A stretch of DNA of 64,000 bases from Escherichia coli (GCF_041248615.1 NZ_CP158426.1), one strand, 5' to 3'. Shown: positions 5,498 to 49,857, counted from the stretch's first letter. A program made the numbers and translations. The notes: a model not told the origin generated them from the sequence alone.

Positions 5498-7141
5498 ATG
5501 CGCCAGGTATTATCGTCTCTTTTGGTGATTGCTGGACTTGTGAGTGGTCAGGCAATCGCCGCGCCTGAATCCCCCCCGCATGCTGATATCCGCGACAGCG
5601 GTTTTGTCTATTGCGTCAGCGGGCAAGTCAACACCTTTAACCCATCCAAAGCGAGCAGTGGGTTAATTGTCGATACCCTTGCCGCCCAGTTTTATGATCG
5701 ACTGCTGGATGTCGATCCCTATACCTATCGCCTGATGCCGGAACTTGCCGAAAGCTGGGAAGTTCTCGATAACGGCGCGACCTATCGCTTCCACCTGCGT
5801 CGCGATGTTCCGTTTCAAAAAACCGACTGGTTTACTCCCACTCGTAAAATGAATGCCGACGATGTGGTGTTTACCTTCCAGCGAATTTTTGACCGCAACA
5901 ACCCGTGGCATAACGTCAACGGCAGCAACTTCCCCTACTTCGACAGCCTGCAATTTGCCGATAACGTGAAAAGCGTCCGCAAACTGGATAATCATACGGT
6001 TGAGTTCCGACTCGCCCAGCCGGATGCTTCTTTTTTGTGGCACCTGGCGACCCATTATGCATCGGTCATGTCGGCAGAATATGCCCGGAAGTTAGAGAAA
6101 GAAGATCGTCAGGAACAACTCGACCGTCAGCCGGTCGGCACTGGACCGTATCAGTTGTCGGAATACCGCGCCGGGCAATTTATTCGCCTACAACGTCATG
6201 ATGACTTCTGGCGCGGCAAACCGTTAATGCCGCAGGTGGTGGTGGATTTAGGCTCCGGCGGCACCGGACGTCTGTCGAAACTCCTGACTGGTGAATGCGA
6301 CGTTCTGGCCTGGCCTGCTGCCAGCCAGCTATCCATTTTGCGTGACGACCCACGCTTGCGTTTAACGCTGCGTCCAGGGATGAATGTCGCCTATCTGGCA
6401 TTTAACACCGCTAAACCGCCGCTAAATAATCCCGCTGTCCGCCATGCGCTGGCACTGGCGATCAATAACCAGCGTCTGATGCAATCCATCTATTATGGTA
6501 CGGCTGAAACGGCAGCCTCTATTTTACCGCGCGCCTCGTGGGCCTATGACAACGAGGCTAAAATTACTGAATATAATCCGGCGAAATCGCGCGAACGGTT
6601 GAAGGCGTTGGGGCTGGAAAACTTAACGCTGAAACTGTGGGTACCAACACGTTCGCAGGCGTGGAACCCCAGTCCACTGAAAACTGCCGAATTGATTCAG
6701 GCGGATATGGCACAGGTTGGCGTAAAAGTGGTGATTGTGCCGGTAGAAGGTCGTTTTCAGGAGGCGCGGTTGATGGATATGAGCCATGATCTGACGTTAT
6801 CCGGTTGGGCGACGGACAGTAACGACCCGGACAGTTTCTTCCGTCCGTTACTGAGCTGCGCAGCAATTCATTCGCAGACCAACCTCGCCCACTGGTGCGA
6901 TCCGAAATTCGACAGCGTATTGCGTAAGGCGCTCTCTTCGCAGCAGCTGGCGGCGCGTATTGAAGCCTATGACGAAGCGCAAAGTATTCTGGCGCAGGAA
7001 TTACCTATTCTGCCGCTGGCGTCGTCATTGCGCTTGCAGGCCTATCGGTACGATATCAAAGGTCTGGTACTTAGTCCGTTTGGTAACGCCTCCTTTGCTG
7101 GGGTGTATCGCGAGAAACCGGATGAGGTGAAAAAACCATGA
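5498..7141 (+). CDS. sapA: peptide ABC transporter periplasmic binding protein SapA
   Basis: 547-aa ORF with N-terminal signal peptide; matches SapA; first gene of sapABCDF. Confidence 0.9.
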
Positions 7142-8103
7142 TTATCTTCACCTTACGCCGCATTTTGTTATTGATTGTCACCTTGTTCCTGCTGACCTTC
7201 GTTGGCTTCAGCTTGAGCTATTTCACCCCACATGCGCCGTTACAAGGCGCGTCACTGTGGAATGCCTGGGTGTTCTGGTTTAATGGCCTGATCCACTGGG
7301 ATTTTGGTGTTTCCAGCATTAACGGTCAACCGATTGCCGAACAGTTAAAAGAGGTCTTCCCGGCGACGATGGAACTGTGCATCCTCGCCTTCGGTTTTGC
7401 GCTGATTGTTGGCATCCCCGTGGGGATGATTGCCGGGATTACGCGCCATAAGTGGCAGGATAACTTGATCAACGCCATCGCCTTACTGGGCTTTTCCATC
7501 CCGGTGTTCTGGCTGGCGCTTCTGTTGACGCTGTTTTGTTCACTCACGCTAGGTTGGTTGCCCGTTTCAGGGCGTTTCGATCTGCTCTACGAAGTGAAAC
7601 CGATTACCGGTTTTGCGTTGATTGATGCCTGGCTTTCGGACTCACCATGGCGGGATGAAATGGTCATGAGCGCAATCCGCCATATGATATTGCCCGTGAT
7701 CACCCTGTCGGTTGCGCCAACAACTGAAGTGATCCGACTGATGCGTATTAGCACTATCGAAGTGTATGACCAGAACTATGTTAAAGCAGCGGCGACCCGC
7801 GGTTTGTCGCGCTTTACTATTTTGCGTCGCCACGTTCTGCATAACGCGTTACCTCCGGTTATTCCTCGCCTGGGCTTACAGTTTTCTACCATGCTGACGC
7901 TGGCGATGATCACCGAAATGGTTTTTAGCTGGCCGGGTTTAGGCCGCTGGTTAATTAACGCTATCCGCCAGCAGGATTACGCAGCCATTTCCGCCGGAGT
8001 GATGGTGTGTGGCTCACTGGTCATTATTGTTAACGTGATTTCTGATATTTTGGGTGCCATGGCTAACCCTCTGAAACATAAGGAATGGTATGCCTTACGA
8101 TAG
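7138..8103 (+). CDS. sapB: peptide ABC transporter permease SapB
   Basis: 321-aa polytopic membrane ORF; 4-nt ATGA overlap with the sapA stop. Confidence 0.9.
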
Positions 8104-9973: not shown

Positions 9974-10780
9974 ATGATCGAAACGCTGCTTGAAGTGCGT
10001 AATTTAAGTAAAACGTTCCGCTACCGGACCGGCTGGTTTCGTCGTCAGACCGTAGAAGCGGTAAAACCCTTGAGCTTTACGCTACGTGAAGGCCAGACAC
10101 TGGCGATTATTGGCGAGAATGGTTCGGGTAAATCCACGCTGGCAAAAATGCTGGCGGGAATGATAGAACCTACCAGCGGCGAGTTATTAATTGACGATCA
10201 TCCGCTGCATTTTGGCGATTATTCCTTCCGTAGTCAGCGTATTCGCATGATTTTTCAGGATCCTTCGACCTCGTTGAATCCCCGTCAACGTATCTCGCAA
10301 ATCCTGGATTTTCCACTGCGTCTGAACACCGACCTGGAACCGGAACAGCGTCGCAAACAGATTATTGAAACGATGCGTATGGTTGGGCTGCTACCGGATC
10401 ACGTCAGTTACTATCCGCATATGTTGGCACCCGGGCAAAAACAGCGTCTGGGGCTGGCGCGCGCGCTGATATTGCGCCCAAAAGTCATTATTGCCGATGA
10501 AGCCCTCGCCTCACTGGATATGTCGATGCGTTCGCAGTTGATTAATCTGATGCTGGAGTTACAGGAAAAACAGGGCATTTCGTATATTTATGTTACCCAG
10601 CATATCGGAATGATGAAGCACATTAGCGACCAGGTGCTGGTGATGCATCAGGGCGAGGTTGTCGAGCGAGGCAGCACCGCAGATGTGCTGGCATCGCCGC
10701 TGCATGAACTCACCAAACGGCTGATTACCGGTCATTTTGGCGAGGCATTGACGGCGGATGCGTGGCGTAAGGACCGTTAG
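9974..10780 (+). CDS. sapF: ABC transporter ATP-binding protein SapF
   Basis: 268-aa ORF with Walker A GENGSGKST. Confidence 0.9.
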   Translation: MIETLLEVRNLSKTFRYRTGWFRRQTVEAVKPLSFTLREGQTLAIIGENGSGKSTLAKMLAGMIEPTSGELLIDDHPLHFGDYSFRSQRIRMIFQDPSTSLNPRQRISQILDFPLRLNTDLEPEQRRKQIIETMRMVGLLPDHVSYYPHMLAPGQKQRLGLARALILRPKVIIADEALASLDMSMRSQLINLMLELQEKQGISYIYVTQHIGMMKHISDQVLVMHQGEVVERGSTADVLASPLHELTKRLITGHFGEALTADAWRKDR

Positions 10781-10787
10781 TGTTTTG

Positions 10788-10824
10788 CACCTCATCCTGA
10801 CAGGGCCCCCCTCAGGATGAGGTG
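10788..10824. terminator. bidirectional hairpin between the convergent sapF and MFS genes
   Basis: perfect inverted repeat cacctcatcctga ... tcaggatgaggtg with a short loop. Confidence 0.6.
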
Positions 10825-10828
10825 TTCA

Positions 10829-11992
10829 TTACTTTTGATTGTCGATTCTGGTGAGAGCAACCAGCAATGCCAGCGTATAACACACCGTAATTGCCAGACT
10901 CATTTTTAACAGTGTTTCTCCGCCAATTCCCGACAATGGCGCGGCTATACCGCCGAAGACAAACATGCTCATCCCCATCAACGCAGACGCCGTTCCAGAT
11001 TCCTGCGTCCCTACTGCACTCATAGCCTCTGCCCCGCCAACAGTGCCGATGCCGCTACAAAATGCGATGGTGAAAAATAATGCCACCAGTGCCGGAATGG
11101 GCAATTGTATCCATGCGCATAAGACCGTGAGCAATGCACACAAAATTGCCGCTATCAGGCCACCTCGCAACAATGTCATCGCGTTAATCCGTCGCGCCAG
11201 GCGCGAGAAGATCCATGAAGCAATGATAAGTCCGATGCCGTTAAGGCCAAACACCAGGCTAAATTGCATTGGACTAAAGCCAAATTCCTTCTGCAACACG
11301 AACGACGAAGAGCCGATATATGCAAACAAACCGGCCAGCATAAAACTTTGAATCAGGCAAAAGCGCATAAAACGGCGGTTCTGCACCACGCTTCGTCCGG
11401 TTAATAGCAATGATGAGCCCCTTTTATTTTCTGGCAAGGTCTCATTAATAAATAACAGGCAGCCCAGCAACAGTACGGTGCTAATTTCAGCCATTACCCA
11501 GAATAAAGTGCGCCAGTCAAAAGTGCTGACAATGTACCCGCCCAGCACTGGCGACAACACCGGTGCCAGGCCATTCACCGTCATTAACAGCGCAAAAAAC
11601 TGGGTCAACGTTACTCCCTGATATTTGTCACGAGCAATAGAACGAGAGAGCACCGAACCACCCGCCCCCGCGATCCCTTGAATAAAACGCCAGACCACCA
11701 GCCAGTAAATATTGTTCGTTGTCGCGCACAAAATGGAAGAAACAATAAACAATAGCAACGACAAGATTAACGGACGTTTACGCCCTATTTTGTCGCTCAG
11801 AGGGCCAAATAACAGTTGTCCGACGCCAAGACCGATCAGCGATGCGGTCAGGGTTAATTGCGTTATGGTCGTGGTTGCCGCCAGTTGCTCAGACATCTCC
11901 GGCAAAGCCGGCAAATAAAGATCGGTACACATCGGGCCGATACCGGCTAAAAGACCAAGAATCAATGCCCATGAAAGAGAGACTCTAGCCAT
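10829..11992 (-). CDS. MFS drug efflux transporter (Bcr/CflA-like, DHA1 family)
   Basis: 387-aa ORF with about 12 predicted TM helices and MFS-type motifs (GPLSDKIGRKRP); last gene of the accessory efflux cluster. Confidence 0.75.
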   Translation of the reverse strand: MARVSLSWALILGLLAGIGPMCTDLYLPALPEMSEQLAATTTITQLTLTASLIGLGVGQLLFGPLSDKIGRKRPLILSLLLFIVSSILCATTNNIYWLVVWRFIQGIAGAGGSVLSRSIARDKYQGVTLTQFFALLMTVNGLAPVLSPVLGGYIVSTFDWRTLFWVMAEISTVLLLGCLLFINETLPENKRGSSLLLTGRSVVQNRRFMRFCLIQSFMLAGLFAYIGSSSFVLQKEFGFSPMQFSLVFGLNGIGLIIASWIFSRLARRINAMTLLRGGLIAAILCALLTVLCAWIQLPIPALVALFFTIAFCSGIGTVGGAEAMSAVGTQESGTASALMGMSMFVFGGIAAPLSGIGGETLLKMSLAITVCYTLALLVALTRIDNQK

Positions 11993-12000
11993 ATTATTCC

Positions 12001-13374
12001 TTACTTGAGTGATGACATGCCGCCGCCCAGCGACTGCCAGAGCGTGATTCGGTTTGTAAAATCAGTCAGTTGCAGTGCCAGCAGCTCCTGCTGTGCGCTC
12101 CACAAGCTGCGCTGCGCCGTCAACACGGTCAGGTAATCACCAACACCCGCCTGATAGCGACGCAAGCCAACATCGACCGTTTGTTGCTCAGCTTTAACAT
12201 ACTGGCGCTGTGCATCCAGTTGCTCTTCAAGCGTGGTCCGCCGCGCCAGTGCGTTAGCGACATCTTTAAATGCGCTCTGAACGGTTTTTTCATAGGTGGC
12301 AATGAGTCCACGCTTTTGTGCTTCTGCGTAACGAAGCTGCGCCAAATTACTTCCGCCAGTGAACAGCGGTAATGTGACCGATGGCGTAAATGACCAGATC
12401 TGCATTCCGTAGCTGAACAACGACGACAATGCGTCACTGCCAACACCAGCGCTGGCAGTCAGCGAAATCGTCGGAAAAAAGTTAGCCCGCGCCGCGCCAA
12501 TATCGGCATTGGCGCTCTTCAAATTATGTTCCGCTTCCTGGATATCCGGGCGACGCAGCAGAACGTCAGATGACACTCCCGCAGGAACCAGACTTATCAT
12601 CTGTTCCGGCAGGCTTTCCAGTGTTCCCGGTAGCAAATTTTCCTCAAGCGTTGTACCTGCCAGTAAGTTCAGCGCATTTTTATCCTGCATCACTTGTGTC
12701 TGATAGCTGGCAACGCTGGCGCGCGCTTGCTGATAAACACTCATCGCCTCACTGACATCTGTCGCTGCCGCCGTGCCAACCTGTTGCTGGCGCTGGATAA
12801 TTTTCAATGAGTTTTCTGCACTGGCCATCGTTTCTTTTGCCAGGGCCAGGTTGCTGTTATCAGCCGCCAGTGTCAGCCAGGCGGTGCTGATTTCAGCAAT
12901 CAGCGTTAAACGAGTGTTCTGGGCTGTAAATTCACTGGCAAGCCAGGTTTCCCGCGCCGCCCGAGATAAACTCTGATTACGACCAAACAGATCTAACGTA
13001 TAACTGGACACCGTGCCGTCAGCCTCGGCAGTTGTTCCCGTACCATTCGCCAGCGAACGACTGCGAGTCGAACTTAAGGCCGCATTCACCGTCGGGAATA
13101 ACGACGCATTAGTTTGCCCATAGAGCGCCCGTGCTGAGTCAATATCAGCAATCGCTTTTTGCACATCGCGGTTACTGTTCAGTGCAATGGTTACTACCTG
13201 CTGCAATCGGGGATCGTGGATCACCTGCTGCCAGTCATGGCTGATTGCCTTCCCCTGGCCCTGTGCTCCCGGCAAGGTCGCCGGGATTGGGGATTCAGGC
13301 GTACTGTAGTGGGGATCGAGCGAGACACATCCCGCACTCAACAGCACCAGAAAAATAAGAGAACGACGCAACAT
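12001..13374 (-). CDS. efflux outer-membrane factor lipoprotein (NodT/OprM family)
   Basis: 457-aa ORF with lipoprotein signal (LLSAGC); two-repeat architecture typical of TolC-like OMF proteins. Confidence 0.8.
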   Translation of the reverse strand: MLRRSLIFLVLLSAGCVSLDPHYSTPESPIPATLPGAQGQGKAISHDWQQVIHDPRLQQVVTIALNSNRDVQKAIADIDSARALYGQTNASLFPTVNAALSSTRSRSLANGTGTTAEADGTVSSYTLDLFGRNQSLSRAARETWLASEFTAQNTRLTLIAEISTAWLTLAADNSNLALAKETMASAENSLKIIQRQQQVGTAAATDVSEAMSVYQQARASVASYQTQVMQDKNALNLLAGTTLEENLLPGTLESLPEQMISLVPAGVSSDVLLRRPDIQEAEHNLKSANADIGAARANFFPTISLTASAGVGSDALSSLFSYGMQIWSFTPSVTLPLFTGGSNLAQLRYAEAQKRGLIATYEKTVQSAFKDVANALARRTTLEEQLDAQRQYVKAEQQTVDVGLRRYQAGVGDYLTVLTAQRSLWSAQQELLALQLTDFTNRITLWQSLGGGMSSLK

Positions 13375-13377
13375 AAC

Positions 13378-16300
13378 TTACTCCTGACGGCGCGGTTTAC
13401 CGGCAAACAAACGTTTCACCAGTACAAAAAACAGAGGAACAAAGAAAATAGCCAGCAACGTAGCGGTCAGCGTACCGCCAATAATGCCCGTACCAATGGC
13501 GATGCGGCTGTTCGCCCCTGCGCCGGTTGCTATCGCCAGCGGCATTACCCCCGCAATAAACGCCAGCGAGGTCATGATGATTGGGCGTAAACGAGTCTGC
13601 GCCGCGCGTAATGCCGCACGACTCAAGGAATAGCCCTCTGCAACCGCCGCTTCAGCAAATTCCACAATCAGAATGGCGTTTTTCGACGACAAGCCGATAG
13701 TGGTTAATAGCGCCACCTGGAAGTAAACATCGTTGTTTAAATCACGCATCCAGGCCGCCAGCGCCGCGCCAAGAAGCCCCAGAGGGATCACCAGAATGAC
13801 CGAGAACGGGACTGACCAGCTTTCGTACAGTGCTGCAAGGCAGAGGAAAACCACCAGAATAGAAACTGCATACAGACTTAATGCCTGACCGCTGGCCAGT
13901 TTCTCCTGCAATGACAAACCACTCCAGGCCCAGGTTGTTCCCGCAGGAAGACTGTTTGCCAGTTCCTCCATTTTTGTCATTGCATCGCCGGAACTAAAGC
14001 CAGTCGCATTTTCCCCCTGAATTTCATAGGCTGCAGAACCGTTGTAGCGCACCAGTCTTTCCGGTCCATACAGCCAGCGGGTGGTCGCAAAAGCAGAGAA
14101 TGGTGTCATGGCGTTATCGCTACCGCGCACAAACCATTTACCTAAGTCTGACGGCGCGGAACGAAATTCACTGTCGCCCTGAATGTAGACTTTTTTCACA
14201 CGACCACGGTCAATAAAGTCATTCACATAAGTACCGCCCCACGCACTGGACAGGGTGTCGGTGACATCATTCAAACTCAACCCTAATGACACCGCTTTAT
14301 TACTATCAATATCTACCTGCAATTGCGGCATTTGTGGCAAATCATTAGCACGCACAGAATGTAACTCCGGACTTTGATTCGCTTTTTCTATCAACTGATT
14401 ACGCATTTGCAGTAGTGTTTCGCGATCGGTTCCACCGTTAGCTAACAATTCAAACGTAAAACCATTGCTTTGCCCCAGCCCATCAACGGCTGGCGGCGTC
14501 ATCGCAAATACCGTGGCATCACGAATTGTGCCCAGCTCTTTGGTTGCCCGTAGGGCGATAGCCTGGGCGGTGTTTTCTGCCCCTTTACGTTGAGACCAGT
14601 TTTTCAACGAAACAAACGCCATCCCGGTGTTCTGTCCGCTGCCGCTAAAACTGAAACCATCAACGGTAAAAATAACATCGGTATTTGCTTTCTCATTAAT
14701 CAGGAACCAGTCAACAATCTGGCGATTCACTTCTGCTGTACGGGCAGCGGTCGCCCCGGCCGGCAGCGTGTACTGCACCATGATTTCGCCCTGGTCTTCA
14801 GTGGGTAAGAAACTGCCCGGCAGTTTCCACATCATCAGGGCCATTCCACCACCCAGTACGACATAAAGCCCCATCGTTCGAGCAGCACGGCGCAGGACAT
14901 AAATTACGCCTCGCTGATATTTATCTTCAGTACGGCGGTAAAAGCGGTTAAATGCGCCGAAAAAGCCTTTTTTATGTGGCGGAACATGCTGGAGGACGGA
15001 ACCGCACAGGGCGGGAGTCAAGGTCAATGCCACTACCACGGAAAGCAGCATTGCGGAGATAATGGTTATCGAAAACTGACGATAAATTACCCCCGTAGAT
15101 CCCCCAAAGAAGGCCATAGGCAGGAATACGGCTGATAACACCAGCGCAATGGCAACCAGTGCGCCAGAAATCTCGCCCATTGATTTTTCCGTGGCTTCAC
15201 GCGCGGGCAACCCTTCGTCACGCATAATGCGTTCGACGTTCTCCACCACCACAATGGCATCGTCCACCAGCAAGCCGATCGCCAGGACCATTGCAAACAA
15301 CGTCAGGGTATTAATCGAATAGCCAAACAACGCAAGAACGCCGAATGTGCCCAGCAAAACGACGGGGACAGCTAACGCCGGAATCAGTGTGGCACGCAGG
15401 TTTTGCAGGAATAAATACATCACGCAAACCACCAATACGATGGCTTCAAACAGCGTCTGAATTACGTCCTCTACAGAGATTTTAATAAATTCAGTGCTGT
15501 CTTTCGGGTATGCGATGTCGTATCCCTGCGGCATGTTCCGCTGGAATTCGGCAATCTTATCCTTGACCAGCGTCGCCGTATTCAGCGCATTCGCACCGGG
15601 CGAAAGCATTACAGCAACCCCGGCAGACGGGTGACCGTTAAGTTTGCCGATAGCGGTATAATCTTCACTGCCCATCTCAACGCGAGCCACATCTTTTATA
15701 CGAACAACTGCGCCGTCTGACTGGCTTTTCACGATAATATTTTTGAACTGATCCACCGTCTGCAAGCGAGACTGCGCACGTACCGTTGCGGTCAGTTGCT
15801 GAGTATTCGGTGAAGGCAATGCCCCTATTTTCCCGGCAGTAACCTGCACGTTTTGCGCTTCAATAGCACTTTGCACGTCTGAAGGCATTAGCGAGTAAGA
15901 CGCCAGTTTGGCCGGGTCAAGCCAGATGCGCATAGCGTATTCCGCGCCAAAGACTTGCAGACTCCCCACACCTTCAACACGCGCCAGCGGGTCCTGAACG
16001 TTACTAACCAACCAGTCGGCGATATCCGAACTGGAGGCTTTATCAGTGGTGTCATACACGGCAGCAATCAGCAAAAAGTTGCTTTGTGATTTCTCCACCG
16101 TAACACCCGTTTGCTGCACTTCGCTGGGTAGGCGCGACTCCGCCTGCTGAATTTTATTCTGCACCTGAACCTGTGCAGTATCTGGATCGGTACCTTGTTC
16201 AAAGGTCACATTAATACTGACCGAACCATCAGAGCTACTGGTTGAGCTGAAATAGAGTAAATTATCAAGCCCAGTGAGTTGTTGCTCGATAACCTGAGTC

Positions 16301-16485
16301 ACGCTGTTCTCCAGCGTTTCGGCAGAAGCACCAGTATAAGTGGCTGAAATTTTAATGGTCGGCGGTGCAACGTCAGGATATTGCGCGACGGGTAATGTGC
16401 GAATAGCCAGAATCCCCGCCAACATAATCAAAATGGCGATAACCCAGGCAAAGACCGGGCGGCGAACAAAAAAGCGCGAAAACAT
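13378..16485 (-). CDS. RND multidrug efflux pump, inner-membrane permease (AcrB/MexB-like HAE1)
   Basis: 1035-aa ORF; N-terminus MFSRFFVRRPVFAWVIAILIMLAG is the hallmark AcrB-family start; 12 TM helices and two large periplasmic loops. Confidence 0.9.
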   Translation of the reverse strand: MFSRFFVRRPVFAWVIAILIMLAGILAIRTLPVAQYPDVAPPTIKISATYTGASAETLENSVTQVIEQQLTGLDNLLYFSSTSSSDGSVSINVTFEQGTDPDTAQVQVQNKIQQAESRLPSEVQQTGVTVEKSQSNFLLIAAVYDTTDKASSSDIADWLVSNVQDPLARVEGVGSLQVFGAEYAMRIWLDPAKLASYSLMPSDVQSAIEAQNVQVTAGKIGALPSPNTQQLTATVRAQSRLQTVDQFKNIIVKSQSDGAVVRIKDVARVEMGSEDYTAIGKLNGHPSAGVAVMLSPGANALNTATLVKDKIAEFQRNMPQGYDIAYPKDSTEFIKISVEDVIQTLFEAIVLVVCVMYLFLQNLRATLIPALAVPVVLLGTFGVLALFGYSINTLTLFAMVLAIGLLVDDAIVVVENVERIMRDEGLPAREATEKSMGEISGALVAIALVLSAVFLPMAFFGGSTGVIYRQFSITIISAMLLSVVVALTLTPALCGSVLQHVPPHKKGFFGAFNRFYRRTEDKYQRGVIYVLRRAARTMGLYVVLGGGMALMMWKLPGSFLPTEDQGEIMVQYTLPAGATAARTAEVNRQIVDWFLINEKANTDVIFTVDGFSFSGSGQNTGMAFVSLKNWSQRKGAENTAQAIALRATKELGTIRDATVFAMTPPAVDGLGQSNGFTFELLANGGTDRETLLQMRNQLIEKANQSPELHSVRANDLPQMPQLQVDIDSNKAVSLGLSLNDVTDTLSSAWGGTYVNDFIDRGRVKKVYIQGDSEFRSAPSDLGKWFVRGSDNAMTPFSAFATTRWLYGPERLVRYNGSAAYEIQGENATGFSSGDAMTKMEELANSLPAGTTWAWSGLSLQEKLASGQALSLYAVSILVVFLCLAALYESWSVPFSVILVIPLGLLGAALAAWMRDLNNDVYFQVALLTTIGLSSKNAILIVEFAEAAVAEGYSLSRAALRAAQTRLRPIIMTSLAFIAGVMPLAIATGAGANSRIAIGTGIIGGTLTATLLAIFFVPLFFVLVKRLFAGKPRRQE

Positions 16486-17606
16486 CAGGCGTTGCCTCCA
16501 TTAGCCTGAACTTCAACAGCCTTGACGGTCTGCCCTGAAGTGACTTTGGCAGAACCTTCAACAATCAGTCGGTCGCCGTTGTGCAGGCCGTTCAGCACCA
16601 GCCATTTATCACCATACGTTTCTCCCGTTTCGAGCGTTCGCTGCTCTACTTTATTGTCTTTATTCACCACCAGCGCAGTTGCATTGCCTTTAGCATCGCG
16701 CGTGACGCCCTGTTGCGGCGCGAGAATAGCGTCTTCCATCACGCCTTCATCGACACGAGCGCGAACAAACATTCCCGGTAATAACTGCTGTTGTGGATTG
16801 GGGAAAATCGCCCGTAATGTCACCGAACCGGTAGACTCATCTACAGCGACTTCGGTGAGTTCCAGACGCCCTTTTTCGCTGTAGGTTGTGCCATCTTCCA
16901 GAATAAGTGAGACGCTCATGGTGTCACTGTTGGTCGCCAGTGACTGTTTACGCAGACGTAATAAATCGACACTGGAGCGAGTGAGGTCGACATACATTGT
17001 ATCCAGACCACGAATAGTCGTTAACGCTGTATCTTGCGACGCGGTCACCAGTGCGCCAGGGGTTACCGACGAAATGCCAATGCGCCCTGAAATCGGTGCG
17101 GTTACCGTGGTCCAGTCAAGATTAATGCGCGCAGTTTCCAGCGCGGCTTTTTTCGCCTCTACACTGGCTTTATCTTGTGCACAGGTAGACTGAGCATCAT
17201 CAGCATCCTGTTGTGAAACACCGTTCTCTTTCACCAGTCGGGCATAACGCTGCGCTTTCTGGCAATCGGCTTTTACCAGTGCCTGTGCTTGTTGTAATGC
17301 TGCCCGAGCTTCATTCCATGCAGCCTGATAACTGGCCGCATCAATCTGGTAGAGAGGCTGTCCAGCCTTGACCAGATCACCTTCCTTAAATAAGCGTTTC
17401 TGGATAATTCCCCCAACCTGCGGACGTACTTCAGCACTGAGCGCAGCACTGGTGCGTCCGGTTAATTCACTGACTACCGAAACAGGTTGAGATTTGAGCG
17501 TAACAACGCCGACTTCTGTTTCTGACGGGGATGAATTGTTACTTTGCGTATTATCACAACCCGATAAGAGCAGCATTGCCACTACAGATGTTGCTATATA
17601 CTTCAT
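16485..17606 (-). CDS. RND efflux membrane fusion protein (AcrA/MexA-like periplasmic adaptor)
   Basis: ORF with lipoprotein signal MKYIATSVVAMLLLSGC; start chosen at the ATG preceded by GGAG (ORF track extends to 17639); 1-nt overlap with the RND gene. Confidence 0.8.
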   Translation of the reverse strand: MKYIATSVVAMLLLSGCDNTQSNNSSPSETEVGVVTLKSQPVSVVSELTGRTSAALSAEVRPQVGGIIQKRLFKEGDLVKAGQPLYQIDAASYQAAWNEARAALQQAQALVKADCQKAQRYARLVKENGVSQQDADDAQSTCAQDKASVEAKKAALETARINLDWTTVTAPISGRIGISSVTPGALVTASQDTALTTIRGLDTMYVDLTRSSVDLLRLRKQSLATNSDTMSVSLILEDGTTYSEKGRLELTEVAVDESTGSVTLRAIFPNPQQQLLPGMFVRARVDEGVMEDAILAPQQGVTRDAKGNATALVVNKDNKVEQRTLETGETYGDKWLVLNGLHNGDRLIVEGSAKVTSGQTVKAVEVQANGGNA

Positions 17607-17657
17607 TATTTTCTCCAGGGTGAGAAATACCCTCCTCATTGAAATTAATGAGGATAT

Positions 17658-17736
17658 GTCAGGGATATTCAGTTATAACGAACCCGCATCGCGAAATGAA
17701 TTTCGCAATGAAATAAGGGGGATTAATATCCCCCGC
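17658..17736. promoter_or_regulatory. palindrome-rich region between the tetR-like gene and the efflux operon (candidate operator plus terminator hairpin)
   Basis: inverted repeats cctcatt-N6-aatgagg and gcgaaat-ga-atttcgc, followed by the hairpin gggggattaatatccccc. Confidence 0.4.
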
Positions 17737-17754
17737 TATTGGTTAATTCTGTTC

Positions 17755-18321
17755 TTATTTATTTATCAACATACTAACAATATCCTGATATATTTCCTGC
17801 AGATGTTGTGGATCGCTTTTTTGCGGTGTTAAACGACGATAAACCGTACCTTCCATCATGGTAGCAAACACTTCAACGCAGCAACGAATGTGCTCGTCGC
17901 TAAGATGGGGATGCATTCTTTTCATATGTGCACAACCGTTAGCGAACATTCTGGCGTCAGCTTCTTCAAGCATTGCCATAACCCGCGGGTTGCGTGTGGC
18001 TTCTGCAGCCACTTCCAGCATCAGCGCGTCGTCGTCCTCATTTAAGGATTTACGCAAGGCAAGGACTTCCGGGAAGTGATCGGTACGCGCGTCAATGTCC
18101 ATTTGGGCAATACGAAAGTCGATGATACGGCGAACCATCTCTTCAATAATGGCGTCTTTGTTGGCGAAGTAACGATATATCTGACCCACGCTAAGCTGAG
18201 CTTCGCTGGCAATTTGCGACATACTGGCGGCATGAAACCCGCAGCGACGAAAACACCGACGGGCGGCGTTAATGATTTCATCCTGACGCTGTTTGTGGCG
18301 TATCTCCAGCTTGCTGGTCAT
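17755..18321 (-). CDS. TetR/AcrR-family transcriptional regulator
   Basis: TetR-type HTH (AARRCFRRCGFHAASMSQIASEAQLSVGQIYRYFANKD) near the N-terminus when started at MTSKLEIRH (AGGAGA RBS); ORF track extends to 18420. Confidence 0.75.
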   Translation of the reverse strand: MTSKLEIRHKQRQDEIINAARRCFRRCGFHAASMSQIASEAQLSVGQIYRYFANKDAIIEEMVRRIIDFRIAQMDIDARTDHFPEVLALRKSLNEDDDALMLEVAAEATRNPRVMAMLEEADARMFANGCAHMKRMHPHLSDEHIRCCVEVFATMMEGTVYRRLTPQKSDPQHLQEIYQDIVSMLINK

Positions 18322-18346
18322 TTCTGTCTCCTGGCCTATCACTTGG

Positions 18347-18364
18347 TGAGAATGATCGTTCTCA
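18347..18364. promoter_or_regulatory. 18-bp near-perfect palindrome upstream of the tetR-like start (candidate autoregulatory operator)
   Basis: TGAGAATGATCGTTCTCA, symmetric with 2 central mismatches, 26 bp upstream of the proposed start codon. Confidence 0.4.
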
Positions 18365-18798
18365 TTTTTGCTGATTATACGTTTCTCCAAAGTAATGGAA
18401 AGTATTTTTATCTTATTCATGGTGCATATTCTGATAATGAAGAGATTGTGGAGATTATGTGAAGATAGTTGACAATATTAAGTTGGGGTCAATTCATCAG
18501 AAAGGCTGCTACTTGTTGTCGCCAGTTCTGTTTTCATCATCAAACTTATCGGAGCTAATACGAATAGTTTCAGAGTCAGATTCTATAAGATATTCCCCCA
18601 ACCTACCCCTTGCAGGCGTCAAGAGTAGATAACGCAAAATGCTCTGTACCGCAGCTTCTCTCCGGTACAGAAAGCGCAACTATAGCCACCCACAGCCAGG
18701 TTGATTATAATAACCGTTTATCTGTTCGTACTGTTTACTAAAACGACGAATCGCCTGATTTTCAGGCACAACAAGCATCAACAATAAGGATTAAAGCT

Positions 18799-19587
18799 AT
18801 GGGTTTTCTTTCCGGTAAGCGCATTCTGGTAACCGGTGTTGCCAGCAAACTGTCCATCGCCTACGGTATCGCTCAGGCGATGCACCGCGAAGGAGCTGAA
18901 CTGGCATTCACCTACCAGAACGACAAACTGAAAGGCCGCGTAGAAGAATTTGCAGCTCAATTGGGTTCTGACATCGTTCTGCAGTGCGATGTTGCCGAAG
19001 ATGCCAGCATCGACACCATGTTCGCTGAACTGGCGAAAGTTTGGCCGAAATTTGACGGTTTCGTACACTCTATTGGTTTTGCACCTGGCGATCAGCTGGA
19101 TGGTGACTATGTTAACGCCGTTACCCGTGAAGGCTTCAAAATTGCTCACGACATCAGCTCCTACAGCTTCGTTGCAATGGCAAAAGCTTGCCGCTCCATG
19201 CTGAATCCGGGTTCTGCCCTGCTGACCCTTTCCTACCTTGGCGCTGAGCGCGCTATCCCGAACTACAACGTTATGGGTCTGGCAAAAGCGTCTCTGGAAG
19301 CAAACGTGCGCTATATGGCGAACGCGATGGGTCCGGAAGGTGTGCGTGTTAACGCCATCTCTGCGGGTCCGATCCGTACTCTGGCGGCTTCCGGTATCAA
19401 AGACTTCCGCAAAATGCTGGCTCATTGCGAAGCCGTTACCCCGATTCGCCGTACCGTTACCATTGAAGATGTGGGTAACTCTGCGGCATTCCTGTGCTCC
19501 GATCTCTCTGCCGGTATCTCCGGTGAAGTGGTCCACGTTGACGGCGGTTTCAGCATCGCTGCAATGAACGAACTCGAACTGAAATAA
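18799..19587 (+). CDS. fabI: enoyl-ACP reductase (NADH) FabI
   Basis: 262-aa ORF matching FabI, including the [16 protein letters not shown] start. Confidence 0.95.
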
Positions 19588-19630: not shown

Positions 19631-19730
19631 CTCTGTTATACCTTTCTGATATTTGTTATCGCCGATCCGTCTTTCTCCCCTTCCCGCCTTGCGTCAGGAT
19701 AACGATTTCCTTTACGACCAAGGAGCGCCC

Positions 19731-20858
19731 ATGGAACAACGCCACATCACCGGCAAAAGCCACTGGTATCATGAAACGCAATCCAGTACTGCGGAATATG
19801 ACGTTCTGCCTCTGGTCCCGGAAGCCGCAAAGGTCAGCGATCCCTTTCTGCTCGACGTGATCCTTGATGAAGAAACGCTGTCACCCTTCCTTTCATGGCT
19901 GGTCCCTGCGCGCGTTCTTGCAGTGGAGTTGTTCCCTGACCAGCTTACCGTGACCCGTTCACAGACCTTCACCGCTTATGAACGCTTGTCGACGGCCCTG
20001 ACGGTTGCTCAGGTTTGCGGCGTCCAGCGGTTATGTAACTACTATTCGGCGCGACTTACGCCGCTCCCCGGGCCTGATTCCTCCAGGGAAAGTAATCATC
20101 GGTTAGCACAAATCACGCAATATGCCCGCCAACTGGCTAGCTCGCCTTCTATTATCGACAACCGATCGCGCCAGCATCTGAATGACGTCGGTCTTACTGT
20201 CTGGGACTGTGTGATCATTAATCAAATCATTGGTTTTATTGGCTTTCAGGCGCGGACCATTGCGACATTTCAGGCTTATCTCGGGCATCCGGTACGCTGG
20301 TTACCCGGTCTGGAGATACAAAACTATGCCGACGCGTCACTGTTTGCTGATGAGTCAATACGCTGGCGAAGCAGCTATGAGGTGGAAAAACTACCTGAAG
20401 AGCACACAAAAAGTTCAACTGCAGAACTTTGCCAACTGGCCGAAACACTCTCTCTCCACCCTATTTCACTTTCCCTTCTCGAAAAGTTGCTAAACAGCAC
20501 ACGGGTCAATACACAGCCGGATAATCAGCTTGCGGCGTTGTTATGCGCGCGGATAAATGGCAGTCCTGCTTGTTTTGCCATCTGTATGGATTCATCAAAT
20601 GAATATAAAAAAATCAGCGCCCTTCTGCGCAAGGGCGAAAATGAAATTAACCAATGGGCTGACCGTCATTCTGTTGAGCGCGCTACCGTTCAGGCGATAC
20701 AATGGCTGACCCGAGCACCCGATCGCTTTAGCGCCGCCCAGTTCAGCCCATTACTCGAACACGAAAAATCATCAACGCAGATTATTAATCTGCTGGTATG
20801 GAGCGGGCTGTGTGGCTGGATAAATCGCTTAAAAATCGCGTTGGGTGAGACATATTAA
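19731..20858 (+). CDS. yciW: CMD-domain protein YciW
   Basis: ORF matches YciW; start trimmed to MEQRHITG (AAGGAG RBS) giving 375 aa. Confidence 0.8.
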
Positions 20859-22903: not shown

Positions 22904-23093
22904 CCCGCTCTACCTTCATCATATCCCGGCAGTTTTTTAACTGACTTTCGTTTGAAAACTGGCGTTTTTCCAAAACTGGATTACAAATAAATATATAAAA
23001 AAACAATGCGTTTAGCCGCCGTTAATTTCATGTAAGTCATGTTGTTCCTTTTATTTAACCGCGGACTCCGCTGTTAACCGGAGGATATGCATC

Positions 23094-34001: not shown

Positions 34002-34164
34002 AGCTCCTCCTTAATGACAGGGTTGCGACGCCCTGATTCTCTTCAGGGTGAATATTAAAGATAACACAAACATCGCGTAACGATTTGATAACAACCCAAA
34101 TTGATAAAAGAGGAGAAACCTTGTGGCAAAGCAAATGAAAACCCCGCCGCAGCGGGGTCAGGTA

Positions 34165-34260
34165 TCAGTGAGTAATGATCCAGAGGAATTCGGCCCAGAA
34201 GAGCATCGACAGAGAAAACGCGCCCATCCAGGACCAATATTTCATATTTGTGTTGATCAT
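34165..34260 (-). CDS. 31-aa hydrophobic small ORF upstream of acnA (possibly the small protein annotated as ymiC in K-12)
   Basis: hand translation of the minus strand gives MINTNMKYWSWMGAFSLSMLFWAEFLWIITH with an AAGGTG-like RBS; below the ORF-track length cutoff. Confidence 0.4.
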   Translation of the reverse strand: MINTNMKYWSWMGAFSLSMLFWAEFLWIITH

Positions 34261-34373
34261 AGGCTACACCTTTAACGGTTATTACTTTGTGTTGAGATAA
34301 CTCAACCTGTTATTGCTGCGGTGTATTAAAAGCCCTTTAATTCATTAAAAATGGGTAATAAGAATGATGATAA

Positions 34374-40227: not shown

Positions 40228-40905
40228 AAATGCGCCTGTAAGGCTCTGTTACCAGCCGCGCCCTAACAGGCGCATACGATCTGACATTTGCATTCAACTT
40301 CGTTACTTACGGCCCGTAAACGGGCTGCCCGGATAGGGAATCGATAACTGCTCCCCCATTTTATCCTCTTCAAGCTGGTGCTTTATGTAGTCCTGTATCT
40401 TCGCCGTGTTCTTACCCACCGTATCGACATAGTACCCTCGGCACCAGAACTCCCTGTTTCTGTATTTGAATTTCAAATCCCCAAACTGCTCGTAAAGCAT
40501 CAGACTGCTTTTCCCTTTCAGATATCCCATAAAGCCGGATACGCTCATTTTGGGTGGGATTTCCACAAGCATATGGATATGATCTGCGCAGCACTCTGCT
40601 TCCAGAATCCGTACGCTTTTCCACTCACACAGCTTTCTCAAAATACTGCCTATCGCCCTACGCTTCTCTCCGTAAAACGCCAGTCTTCGGTATTTCGGCG
40701 CAAAAACTATGTGATATTTACAGTTCCAGCGGGTGTGCGCTAAGCTCTTTTCGTCCCCCATTGGGACCCCCTTTTGATTTCTTGTTTGACACTTGCAGTT
40801 GCCAGACCGCAAGGTGTTTTAACAAATCAAAAGGGGTTTTAATAACTGGCTCAAAGCTGAAAGCTTTCCGGAACCCCCAGCCTAGCTGGGGGTTTTCTGT
40901 GCACA
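40228..40905 (-). mobile_element. IS200-type insertion sequence (IS200/IS605 family); boundaries approximate
   Basis: contains a Y1 transposase gene matching IS200 TnpA, plus the characteristic 5' structures: an end-proximal hairpin (40873..40893) and a long stem-loop (about 40767..40836) that occludes the tnpA RBS; no TSD, as expected for this family. Confidence 0.6.
40303..40761 (-). CDS. tnpA: IS200 transposase TnpA (HUH/Y1 family)
   Basis: 152-aa ORF from MGDEKSLAHTRWNCKYHIVFAPKYRR with the HxH motif (ADHIHML) and catalytic Tyr region; track ORF has a 17-aa extension. Confidence 0.9.
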   Translation of the reverse strand: MGDEKSLAHTRWNCKYHIVFAPKYRRLAFYGEKRRAIGSILRKLCEWKSVRILEAECCADHIHMLVEIPPKMSVSGFMGYLKGKSSLMLYEQFGDLKFKYRNREFWCRGYYVDTVGKNTAKIQDYIKHQLEEDKMGEQLSIPYPGSPFTGRK

Positions 40906-49740: not shown

Positions 49741-49785
49741 ATGAAAGCAATTTTCGTACTGAAAGGTTGGTGGCGCACTTCCTGA
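49741..49785 (+). CDS. trpL: trp operon leader peptide
   Basis: atgaaagcaattttcgtactgaaaggttggtggcgcacttcctga encodes [14 protein letters not shown] with tandem Trp codons. Confidence 0.95.
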
Positions 49786-49827
49786 AACGGGCAGTGTATT
49801 CACCATGCGTAAAGCAATCAGATACCC

Positions 49828-49857
49828 AGCCCGCCTAATGAGCGGGCTTTTTTTTGA
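49828..49857 (+). terminator. trp attenuator (3:4 terminator hairpin)
   Basis: agcccgcc-taatga-gcgggct followed by a run of 8 T. Confidence 0.95.

Follow-up and report, generated by a model that had tools for sequence, protein, structure and literature searches.

The eef operon of Escherichia coli, which encodes what has been called a seventh resistance-nodulation-division (RND) pump, is the closest described relative of a five-gene cluster that we analysed at positions 10781-18798 of a 64,000-nucleotide stretch of E. coli DNA (GCF_041248615.1, NZ_CP158426.1; the whole stretch is called the window hereafter). The gene eefR, with eefA and eefB, was reported in some E. coli and in E. albertii (Colclough, 2019; PMC6790063), and eef has been mapped across 19,247 assemblies (Pugh, bioRxiv 2024; Microb Genom 2026, PMC12817139). 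In that survey the operon occurs in phylogroups B2, D, E, F and G, with sequence type 11 (ST11, phylogroup E) counted among the positive lineages, and in none of A, B1, C, ST69 or ST182; its place is always the fabI-sapF interval, which otherwise holds ycjD. All five eef genes are co-transcribed, and EefR binds the palindrome TGAGAACGATCATTCTCA in electrophoretic mobility shift assays (EMSA) (Shen, 2025; PMC12482432). Expression is very low unless eefR is deleted, upon which eefA-D mRNA rises 27- to 83-fold, and resistant mutants are altered at EefR V45 and R50, in the DNA-recognition helix (PMC12482432). The name EefD is used in both recent papers (PMC12817139; PMC12482432). Repression, co-transcription and efflux have been demonstrated for the alleles of ATCC 35218 and ATCC 25922.

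We put at roughly 0.93 the probability that the window carries, in this cluster, the E. coli chromosomal operon eefRABCD, with its seventh RND pump and the repressor-controlled mechanism published for it. Every diagnostic feature tested agrees with published eefRABCD, namely gene order, site, operator, a 188-amino-acid (aa) EefR and the expected residues of EefR, EefA, EefB and EefC, and no sequence feature of the window contradicts this identity. The cluster is thus not new; it has been named, published and partly characterised. Identifying the locus adds no new biology; chiefly, it bears out that K-12 is not representative of the species. What the present analysis contributes is corrected starts for eefR and eefA, evidence on ancestry and orthology, a caution about plasmid records and a structured RNA leader.

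The interval between sapF and fabI is exactly 10781-18798, and an open-reading frame (ORF) scan of the window finds five long ORFs there, all on the minus strand. A preliminary description made from the sequence alone had read them as five co-oriented genes for a TetR-like regulator, a membrane fusion protein (MFP), an RND pump, an outer-membrane factor (OMF) and a transporter of the major facilitator superfamily (MFS); the ORFs and the NCBIfam assignments, which rest on curated family and equivalog cut-offs, bear this out. The genes are as follows.

9974-10780, plus strand: sapF, the left flank, a core gene (NCBIfam SapF equivalog, 588 bits against a cut-off of 452; PGAP agrees).
10829-11992, minus strand: eefD, a 387-aa MFS exporter of the Bcr/CflA subfamily (TIGR00710, 282 against 201 bits).
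12001-13374, minus strand: eefC, a 457-aa OprM/NodT-type OMF lipoprotein (TIGR01845, 374 against 210 bits).
13378-16485, minus strand: eefB, a 1035-aa HAE-1 RND permease (TIGR00915, 1553 against 940 bits).
16485-17606 (corrected start), minus strand: eefA, a 373-aa periplasmic adaptor lipoprotein (TIGR01730, 274 against 95 bits).
17755-18321 (corrected start), minus strand: eefR, which is the operon's first gene and encodes a 188-aa autorepressor of the TetR/AcrR family (helix-turn-helix (HTH) matches and PGAP).
18799-19587, plus strand: fabI, the right flank, an essential core gene (NCBIfam FabI equivalog, 595 against 477 bits).

An RND permease, an adaptor and a NodT/OprM-type OMF, each passing its family model, make this an HAE-1 RND tripartite system. 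The early reading of a 1035-aa, AcrB-like pump holds for EefB, as do the tight or overlapping junctions proposed at 13374/13378 and 16485: eefA and eefB overlap by 1 nucleotide (nt) (TGATG), a gap of 3 nt separates eefB from eefC, and one of 8 nt separates eefC from eefD. EefB falls below every NCBIfam equivalog cut-off (AcrB, 1380 against 2150 bits; AcrD, 1409 against 1854 bits), and the pump therefore belongs to a distinct orthologue group within HAE-1. EefA is likewise under the cut-offs for AcrA (391 against 765 bits) and MexA (404 against 750 bits). AcrB, AcrD, AcrA and MexA are paralogues of the Eef components and not the same pump. EefD does not reach the equivalog cut-offs for Bcr (229 against 303 bits), TcaB (316 against 475 bits) or EmrD and is therefore a distinct orthologue. 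EefR has an N-terminal TetR-type HTH that matches many models of the TetR family but passes none of the family or equivalog cut-offs; in the PGAP annotation of NZ_LT599825.1 (E. coli NRZ14408) its product is named as TetR/AcrR-type and that of eefD as a multidrug efflux MFS transporter. A comparison with closest homologues, which the preliminary description had recommended, places OprM nearest to EefC among solved structures (342 bits), and AcrB-type pumps and MexB about equally near to EefB (approximately 1278-1292 bits).

Two of the ORFs as first drawn were too long at the 5’ end: the MFP ORF spanned 16485-17639 and the TetR ORF 17755-18420 (221 aa). Since the promoter and the EefR operator fall within the 221-aa ORF, we place the eefR start at the ATG at 18321, which yields 188 aa. 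A start at 17606 gives EefA the lipoprotein signal MKYIATSVVAMLLLSGC (lipobox LLSGC, Cys17), and this ATG and its Shine-Dalgarno sequence are kept across genera. The RefSeq/PGAP annotation of NZ_LT599825.1, which is 100% identical, uses the same starts for both genes. Functional residues are intact. EefR translated from 18321 carries V45 and R50; EefB has the complete proton relay (D408, D409, K935, T972); EefA has all positions of the RLS motif (R120, L124, S131, D136); and EefC has a lipobox (LSAGC, Cys16) and D206, G412, L415, T416, L418 and T419, as published. Over-extension of the same kind as in the eefR and eefA ORFs is seen at the N-terminus of yciW, for which the mechanically called 401-aa ORF (TTG start, 19653-20858) exceeds the annotated 375-aa coding sequence (CDS) at 19731-20858.

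The control region lies between eefR and fabI.

18347-18364, minus strand: the EefR operator palindrome TGAGAACGATCATTCTCA, which agrees without a mismatch with the site validated by EMSA in PMC12482432 (0 matches expected by chance).
18374-18401, minus strand: the predicted eefR promoter, directly upstream of the operator (-35 TTTCCA, 16-nt spacer, -10 TATAAT).
18676-18798, plus strand: the fabI upstream region common to the eef-positive and ycjD alleles, which is the right edge of the variable segment in an alignment with K-12.

The predicted eefR promoter is the best promoter-like site of the region (10/12 consensus matches), and each of the 21 loci from other species that have eefR keeps the operator about 40 nt upstream of that gene. 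A promoter scan also finds a promoter-like site, TAGCCA-17-TATAAT, at 18683-18711 in the fabI upstream region. An AT-rich stretch of about 255 bp (18421-18675) that is specific to the eef allele separates the eefR promoter from the shared fabI promoter region; within it, near 18640-18670, is the 8-bp inverted repeat CTGTACCG...CGGTACAG. A candidate second operator before eefA (17621-17638, one mismatch to TGAGAA-N6-TTCTCA) was rejected; its half-site is not kept in other Escherichia, which have TTGTTCA.

These features are consistent with a model in which a single promoter, roughly 300 bp distant from that of the divergently transcribed fabI, would give rise to one eefR-A-B-C-D transcript. EefR, as a 188-aa TetR-family dimer, would bind TGAGAACGATCATTCTCA just downstream of the -10 element and keep the whole operon, its own gene included, nearly silent. 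Repression would be lifted by mutation of eefR, as shown in the literature, or, we infer, by a ligand. Once made, the EefA lipoprotein adaptor, the proton-driven EefB trimer and the OprM-like EefC lipoprotein channel would form a self-sufficient tripartite pump that may expel amphiphilic compounds from the periplasm and the inner-membrane leaflet across the outer membrane. EefD, a predicted Bcr/CflA-type MFS antiporter with 12 transmembrane segments, would carry substrates from the cytoplasm to the periplasm, and could in this way feed EefABC. The clinical relevance is that of a seventh RND pump in E. coli lineages associated with infection: as the literature already notes, one mutation in eefR can suffice to derepress it, and multidrug resistance can follow when AcrB is compromised.

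The earlier statement that the substrate is unknown holds for the natural substrate and fails for overexpression in acrB-null hosts. Under those conditions, minimum inhibitory concentrations (MICs) rise for sanguinarine, erythromycin, chloramphenicol, tetracycline, clindamycin and fusidic acid (PMC12482432), and ethidium and rhodamine 6G are exported (PMC12817139). Several points weigh against the published mechanism as we apply it here. We know of no inducer of EefR. Drug transport is disputed: Pugh observed MIC changes for dyes and none for antibiotics, and Shen observed 8- to 32-fold changes. Synergy between EefD and EefABC was seen in neither study (PMC12817139; PMC12482432). The constructs of PMC12817139 were pET vectors, uninduced, in MG1655, a strain not known to have T7 RNA polymerase, and we infer that the conflict between the two groups is possibly one of expression level.

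Within E. coli, the locus is widespread and far from universal. Among 5426 complete genomes, with a genome called positive when at least 80% of the 8-kb query was present, 2037 (37.5%) carry the full locus. In essentially all of the others the match is confined to query positions 7896-8018, equivalent to 18676-18798 in the window, the 123 bp upstream of fabI. The cluster is hence not found in most genomes, and its early designation as accessory rather than core stands. The locus of the window is 100% identical at the DNA level to those of NRZ14408 and KE55 and 98.7-99.7% identical to those of the other positive strains listed; the O157:H7 strains EDL933 and EC4115 carry it at 98.8-98.9% identity. 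Its presence in EDL933 (phylogroup E) and absence from K-12 (phylogroup A) agree with the distribution in PMC12817139.

The operon has been reported on plasmids in five E. coli strains (PMC12482432). In PLSDB, the full locus is found in three E. coli “plasmid” records (CP141085.1, CP054253.1 and NZ_CP134663.1), one of 4.9 Mb and two of 385 kb and 253 kb. The latter two are classed as non-mobilizable, have no replicon type listed and carry ymjA-sapABCDF-eefRABCD-fabI-yciW-rnb(-pdeR). Because of this chromosomal neighbourhood, which includes the essential fabI, CP141085.1 and CP054253.1 are probably mislabelled pieces of chromosome. With such records in chromosomal context, the argument for plasmid spread is weak. 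An E. cloacae record typed as an IncFIB plasmid (pAVS0889-b, NZ_CP092044.1, 90.8 kb) carries an eefRABC homologue of 75% nucleotide identity without eefD, flanked by a cellobiose phosphotransferase system (PTS) operon, yicS and a GNAT gene.

Outside E. coli, an EefC scan with one genome per species yielded 38 loci. Eef operons occur in at least 10 other enterobacterial genera, at other sites, including Klebsiella, Raoultella, Enterobacter, Kluyvera, Lelliottia, Leclercia, Cedecea and Dryocola. Identity to the proteins of the window is 85-89% for EefB, 74-81% for EefA, 71-79% for EefC, 65-70% for EefD and 62-71% for EefR; these values and the conserved operator indicate that the operons are orthologous. 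Own-OMF operons of this kind in Klebsiella, Raoultella, Enterobacter, Kluyvera and others mean that a pump with its own OMF was overstated, in the preliminary description, as unusual for Enterobacteriaceae. Gene content varies. All five genes are present in Kluyvera cryocrescens, Enterobacter soli and Escherichia; eefD is missing from most Enterobacter, Lelliottia and Leclercia; and eefR is missing from Klebsiella and Raoultella. Where eefR is gone from K. pneumoniae ATCC 13883 (locus L019, about 5540-5765), Raoultella terrigena and Enterobacter sp. 10-1, a TATAAT and the operator TGAGAATGATCATTCTCA are left about 210 nt upstream of eefA; this orphan operator is followed by the eefA leader, with no repressor gene adjacent. 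The eefRABC operons of Enterobacter, Lelliottia and Leclercia have both the EefR operator and the leader in common with E. coli, at 68-89% protein identity, and judged by sequence they are homologous to the E. coli operon, contrary to a statement in PMC12817139.

The spacer between eefR and eefA encodes a conserved RNA structure.

17607-17754 (148 nt), minus strand: the eefR-eefA leader, with three conserved hairpins, H1, H2 and H3.
17734-17717, minus strand: H1, GGGGGAT-ATTA-ATCCCCC followed by the U-run TTATTT, a terminator-like match.
17710-17687, minus strand: H2, CATTGCGAAA/TTTCGCGATG.
17654-17633, minus strand: H3, TCCTCATT/AATGAGGA, just before the conserved TTCACCCTGGAGAAAA-ATG of eefA.

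The leader has a minimum free energy of -45.3 kcal/mol (z = -4.21), and none of 200 shuffled sequences was as stable. H1-H3 recur at matching distances from the eefA ATG, with differing stem sequences, in most of 26 other loci; the K. oxytoca group has H3 only, with the other hairpins weak or missing, and H1 was not called in three further loci. A plain MAFFT alignment left H1 and H3 out of register and was replaced by a covariance-model alignment. The model, seeded with 19 sequences and searched against 761 kb, gave exactly one match per locus, always directly upstream of eefA, and nine of the matches lay outside the seed. Because this alignment is fitted to the structure, its figures lean towards the structure, and we give them beside controls in which pairing partners were slid by 1-3 columns: 84.7% of cells are paired (44-56% when slid), 19 of 24 pairs show a compensatory change (8-14 when slid), and the covariation score is 0.400 (0.12-0.22 when slid). 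RNAalifold recovers H2, with double changes in 6 of 9 pairs. Both the slid controls and the H2 result, which was obtained without such fitting, speak for a real covariation signal, one that spans at least 10 genera.

Rfam has no match in 17607-17754 even at E <= 1. The sole sub-threshold match in the locus, to Bcj14 inside eefA (17341-17513, E 0.1), was judged to be chance. A consensus scan of the spacer found no sigma-70 promoter with at least 4/6 matches per hexamer and at least 9/12 overall, and the best candidate by eye (TTCATT-17-TATAAC) is weak. A term search of the two E. coli eef papers returned no mention of a terminator, stem-loop or attenuator, and this side result may be new. In Escherichia sp. 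MOD1-EC7003 (locus L006, 5494-5625), an insertion of about 126 bp resembling ERIC/IRU elements lies between the eefR stop and H1. Persistence of the leader in Klebsiella lineages without eefR suggests a role in eefABC expression rather than in eefR termination alone. Our reading of the spacer as an undescribed cis-regulatory RNA leader, with a terminator-like H1 and covarying H2 and H3, is a tentative one that we would sooner bet against than on. If H1 limits read-through by attenuation, with H2 and H3 either adjusting that read-through or making the mRNA downstream more stable, the pump would have a second, EefR-independent layer of control. Such a layer could explain both the cryptic nature of the pump and the disagreement over phenotypes between groups that used different constructs.

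The two alleles of the sapF-fabI interval meet at sharp borders. In K-12 MG1655, ycjD alone separates sapF and fabI, as the preliminary description had stated. The left border is marked by one further feature.

10788-10824, no strand assigned: the hairpin CACCTCATCCTGA...TCAGGATGAGGTG, an inverted repeat between the convergent sapF and eefD genes, at the left edge of the variable segment.

This hairpin, probably a two-way terminator, is common to the K-12 and window alleles; the loops differ, and the stem change (T>C / A>G) is compensatory. Homology to K-12 breaks just after it and resumes 123 bp upstream of fabI. Between these breakpoints the alleles share nothing detectable: K-12 has ycjD and a G-rich repeat, and the window has eefRABCD. 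With blastn at word size 7, the K-12 spacer matches only the sapF 3’ end, the post-sapF hairpin and the 123-bp fabI upstream region, with no eef remnants and all other matches at chance level (17 nt or shorter); tblastn finds no ycjD elsewhere in the window.

One could envision eefRABCD as a genomic island that some E. coli lineages recently acquired from a Pseudomonas-like or other donor. Lateral transfer is raised in the Discussion of PMC12817139, the operon is polymorphic in presence within E. coli, and the nearest solved relative of EefC is Pseudomonas OprM. The operon is also not beside sapF and fabI in other enterobacterial genera and so moved at some time in deeper history. We nevertheless consider a recent island improbable. 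Both flanking genes adjoin the operon in four Escherichia loci only, those of E. coli, E. whittamii, E. albertii and a cryptic Escherichia species, and the Eef proteins of the latter three are 94-98% identical to those of the window at this same site. The GC comparison that had been suggested as a check shows no compositional shift, the eef genes (GC 0.48-0.54; GC at third codon positions, GC3, 0.47-0.56) being in line with sap, fabI and rnb. No IS or integrase ORFs were found at the locus by ORF scan, no att-like or flanking direct repeats at its borders, no tRNA in the window and no other RNA gene near the locus. The closest orthologues are enterobacterial, EefB of Klebsiella, Enterobacter and Kluyvera being 85-89% identical to that of the window. 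The shared site in E. albertii and E. whittamii, taken with the absence of a GC shift, tRNA, IS or flanking repeats, indicates an ancestral, lineage-variable operon. The simplest reading has eef already between sapF and fabI in the ancestor of Escherichia, with the ycjD allele taking its place afterwards in A, B1, C and a few sequence types, a history that agrees with the loss scenario in PMC12817139.

What the pump does in nature is a separate matter. A substantial chance, clearly short of even odds, attaches to the view that its true job is export of a host-derived or endogenous compound for gut colonisation or for acid or bile tolerance, and that the drug phenotypes are artefacts of overexpression. 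Deletion of eefB or eefABC in ATCC 25922 causes no MIC change, and the operon is confined to infection-associated phylogroups and highly conserved there (PMC12817139). A K. pneumoniae eefA mutant is described as acid-sensitive and a poor coloniser, as cited in the Introduction of PMC12817139, and the conserved structured leader suggests regulation beyond EefR. On the other side, no physiological substrate has been identified and heavy-metal tests were negative (PMC12817139). This view is compatible with the eefRABCD identification, as it concerns the substrate rather than the machinery. Very low expression unless eefR is mutated (PMC12482432), together with loss of the locus in A, B1, C, ST69 and ST182 and its IS-disruption in S. 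dysenteriae (PMC12817139), might alternatively point to a silent, decaying remnant that contributes nothing to fitness. That is very unlikely: the five ORFs are intact, as are the catalytic and lipobox residues; DNA identity to the eef-positive genomes listed is 98.7-100%, with at least 80% of the locus held in all 2037 positive genomes; and purifying and compensatory selection acts across genera on both the operator and the leader.

Elsewhere in the window, RefSeq annotates a small frameshifted hypothetical pseudogene at 22937-23040, between rnb and pdeR, and Rfam gives three gathering-level matches, ordinary core features unrelated to eef.

34131-34333, strand not stated: STnc180 small RNA (sRNA).
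40771-40894, strand not stated: the Hfq-binding STnc490.
49762-49855, strand not stated: the trp operon leader.

Compared through published features with E. coli eefRABCD of ATCC 25922, SMS-3-5 and ATCC 35218, the operon of the window is another allele, in which nothing substantive differs. EefABC of K. aerogenes and K. pneumoniae and eefRABC of Enterobacter are orthologous systems; the leader is common to all, and the operator is found in Enterobacter-type loci. They differ from the E. coli operon in site, with no sapF or fabI within 10 kb, and H-NS silencing of the K. aerogenes operon is reported in the literature. EefD passes the subfamily model TIGR00710 and belongs with the Bcr/CflA MFS exporters (the Bcr, EmrD and MdfA group, TCDB 2.A.1.2); unlike the usual members, it is co-transcribed with an RND pump. 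Among more distant systems, MexAB-OprM of P. aeruginosa resembles Eef in being an operon-encoded, full tripartite HAE-1 pump with its own OprM-type lipoprotein channel. Its regulator is the divergent MarR-type MexR, not a co-transcribed TetR protein. It also has no linked MFS gene, and EefA remains under the MexA cut-off; EefB and MexB are 56.8% identical (PMC12817139). AcrAB-TolC shares with Eef a paralogous RND permease and adaptor, the same proton relay and the same predicted architecture. It differs in relying on an unlinked TolC and in having a divergent AcrR, whereas EefR is encoded by the first gene of the operon that it controls.

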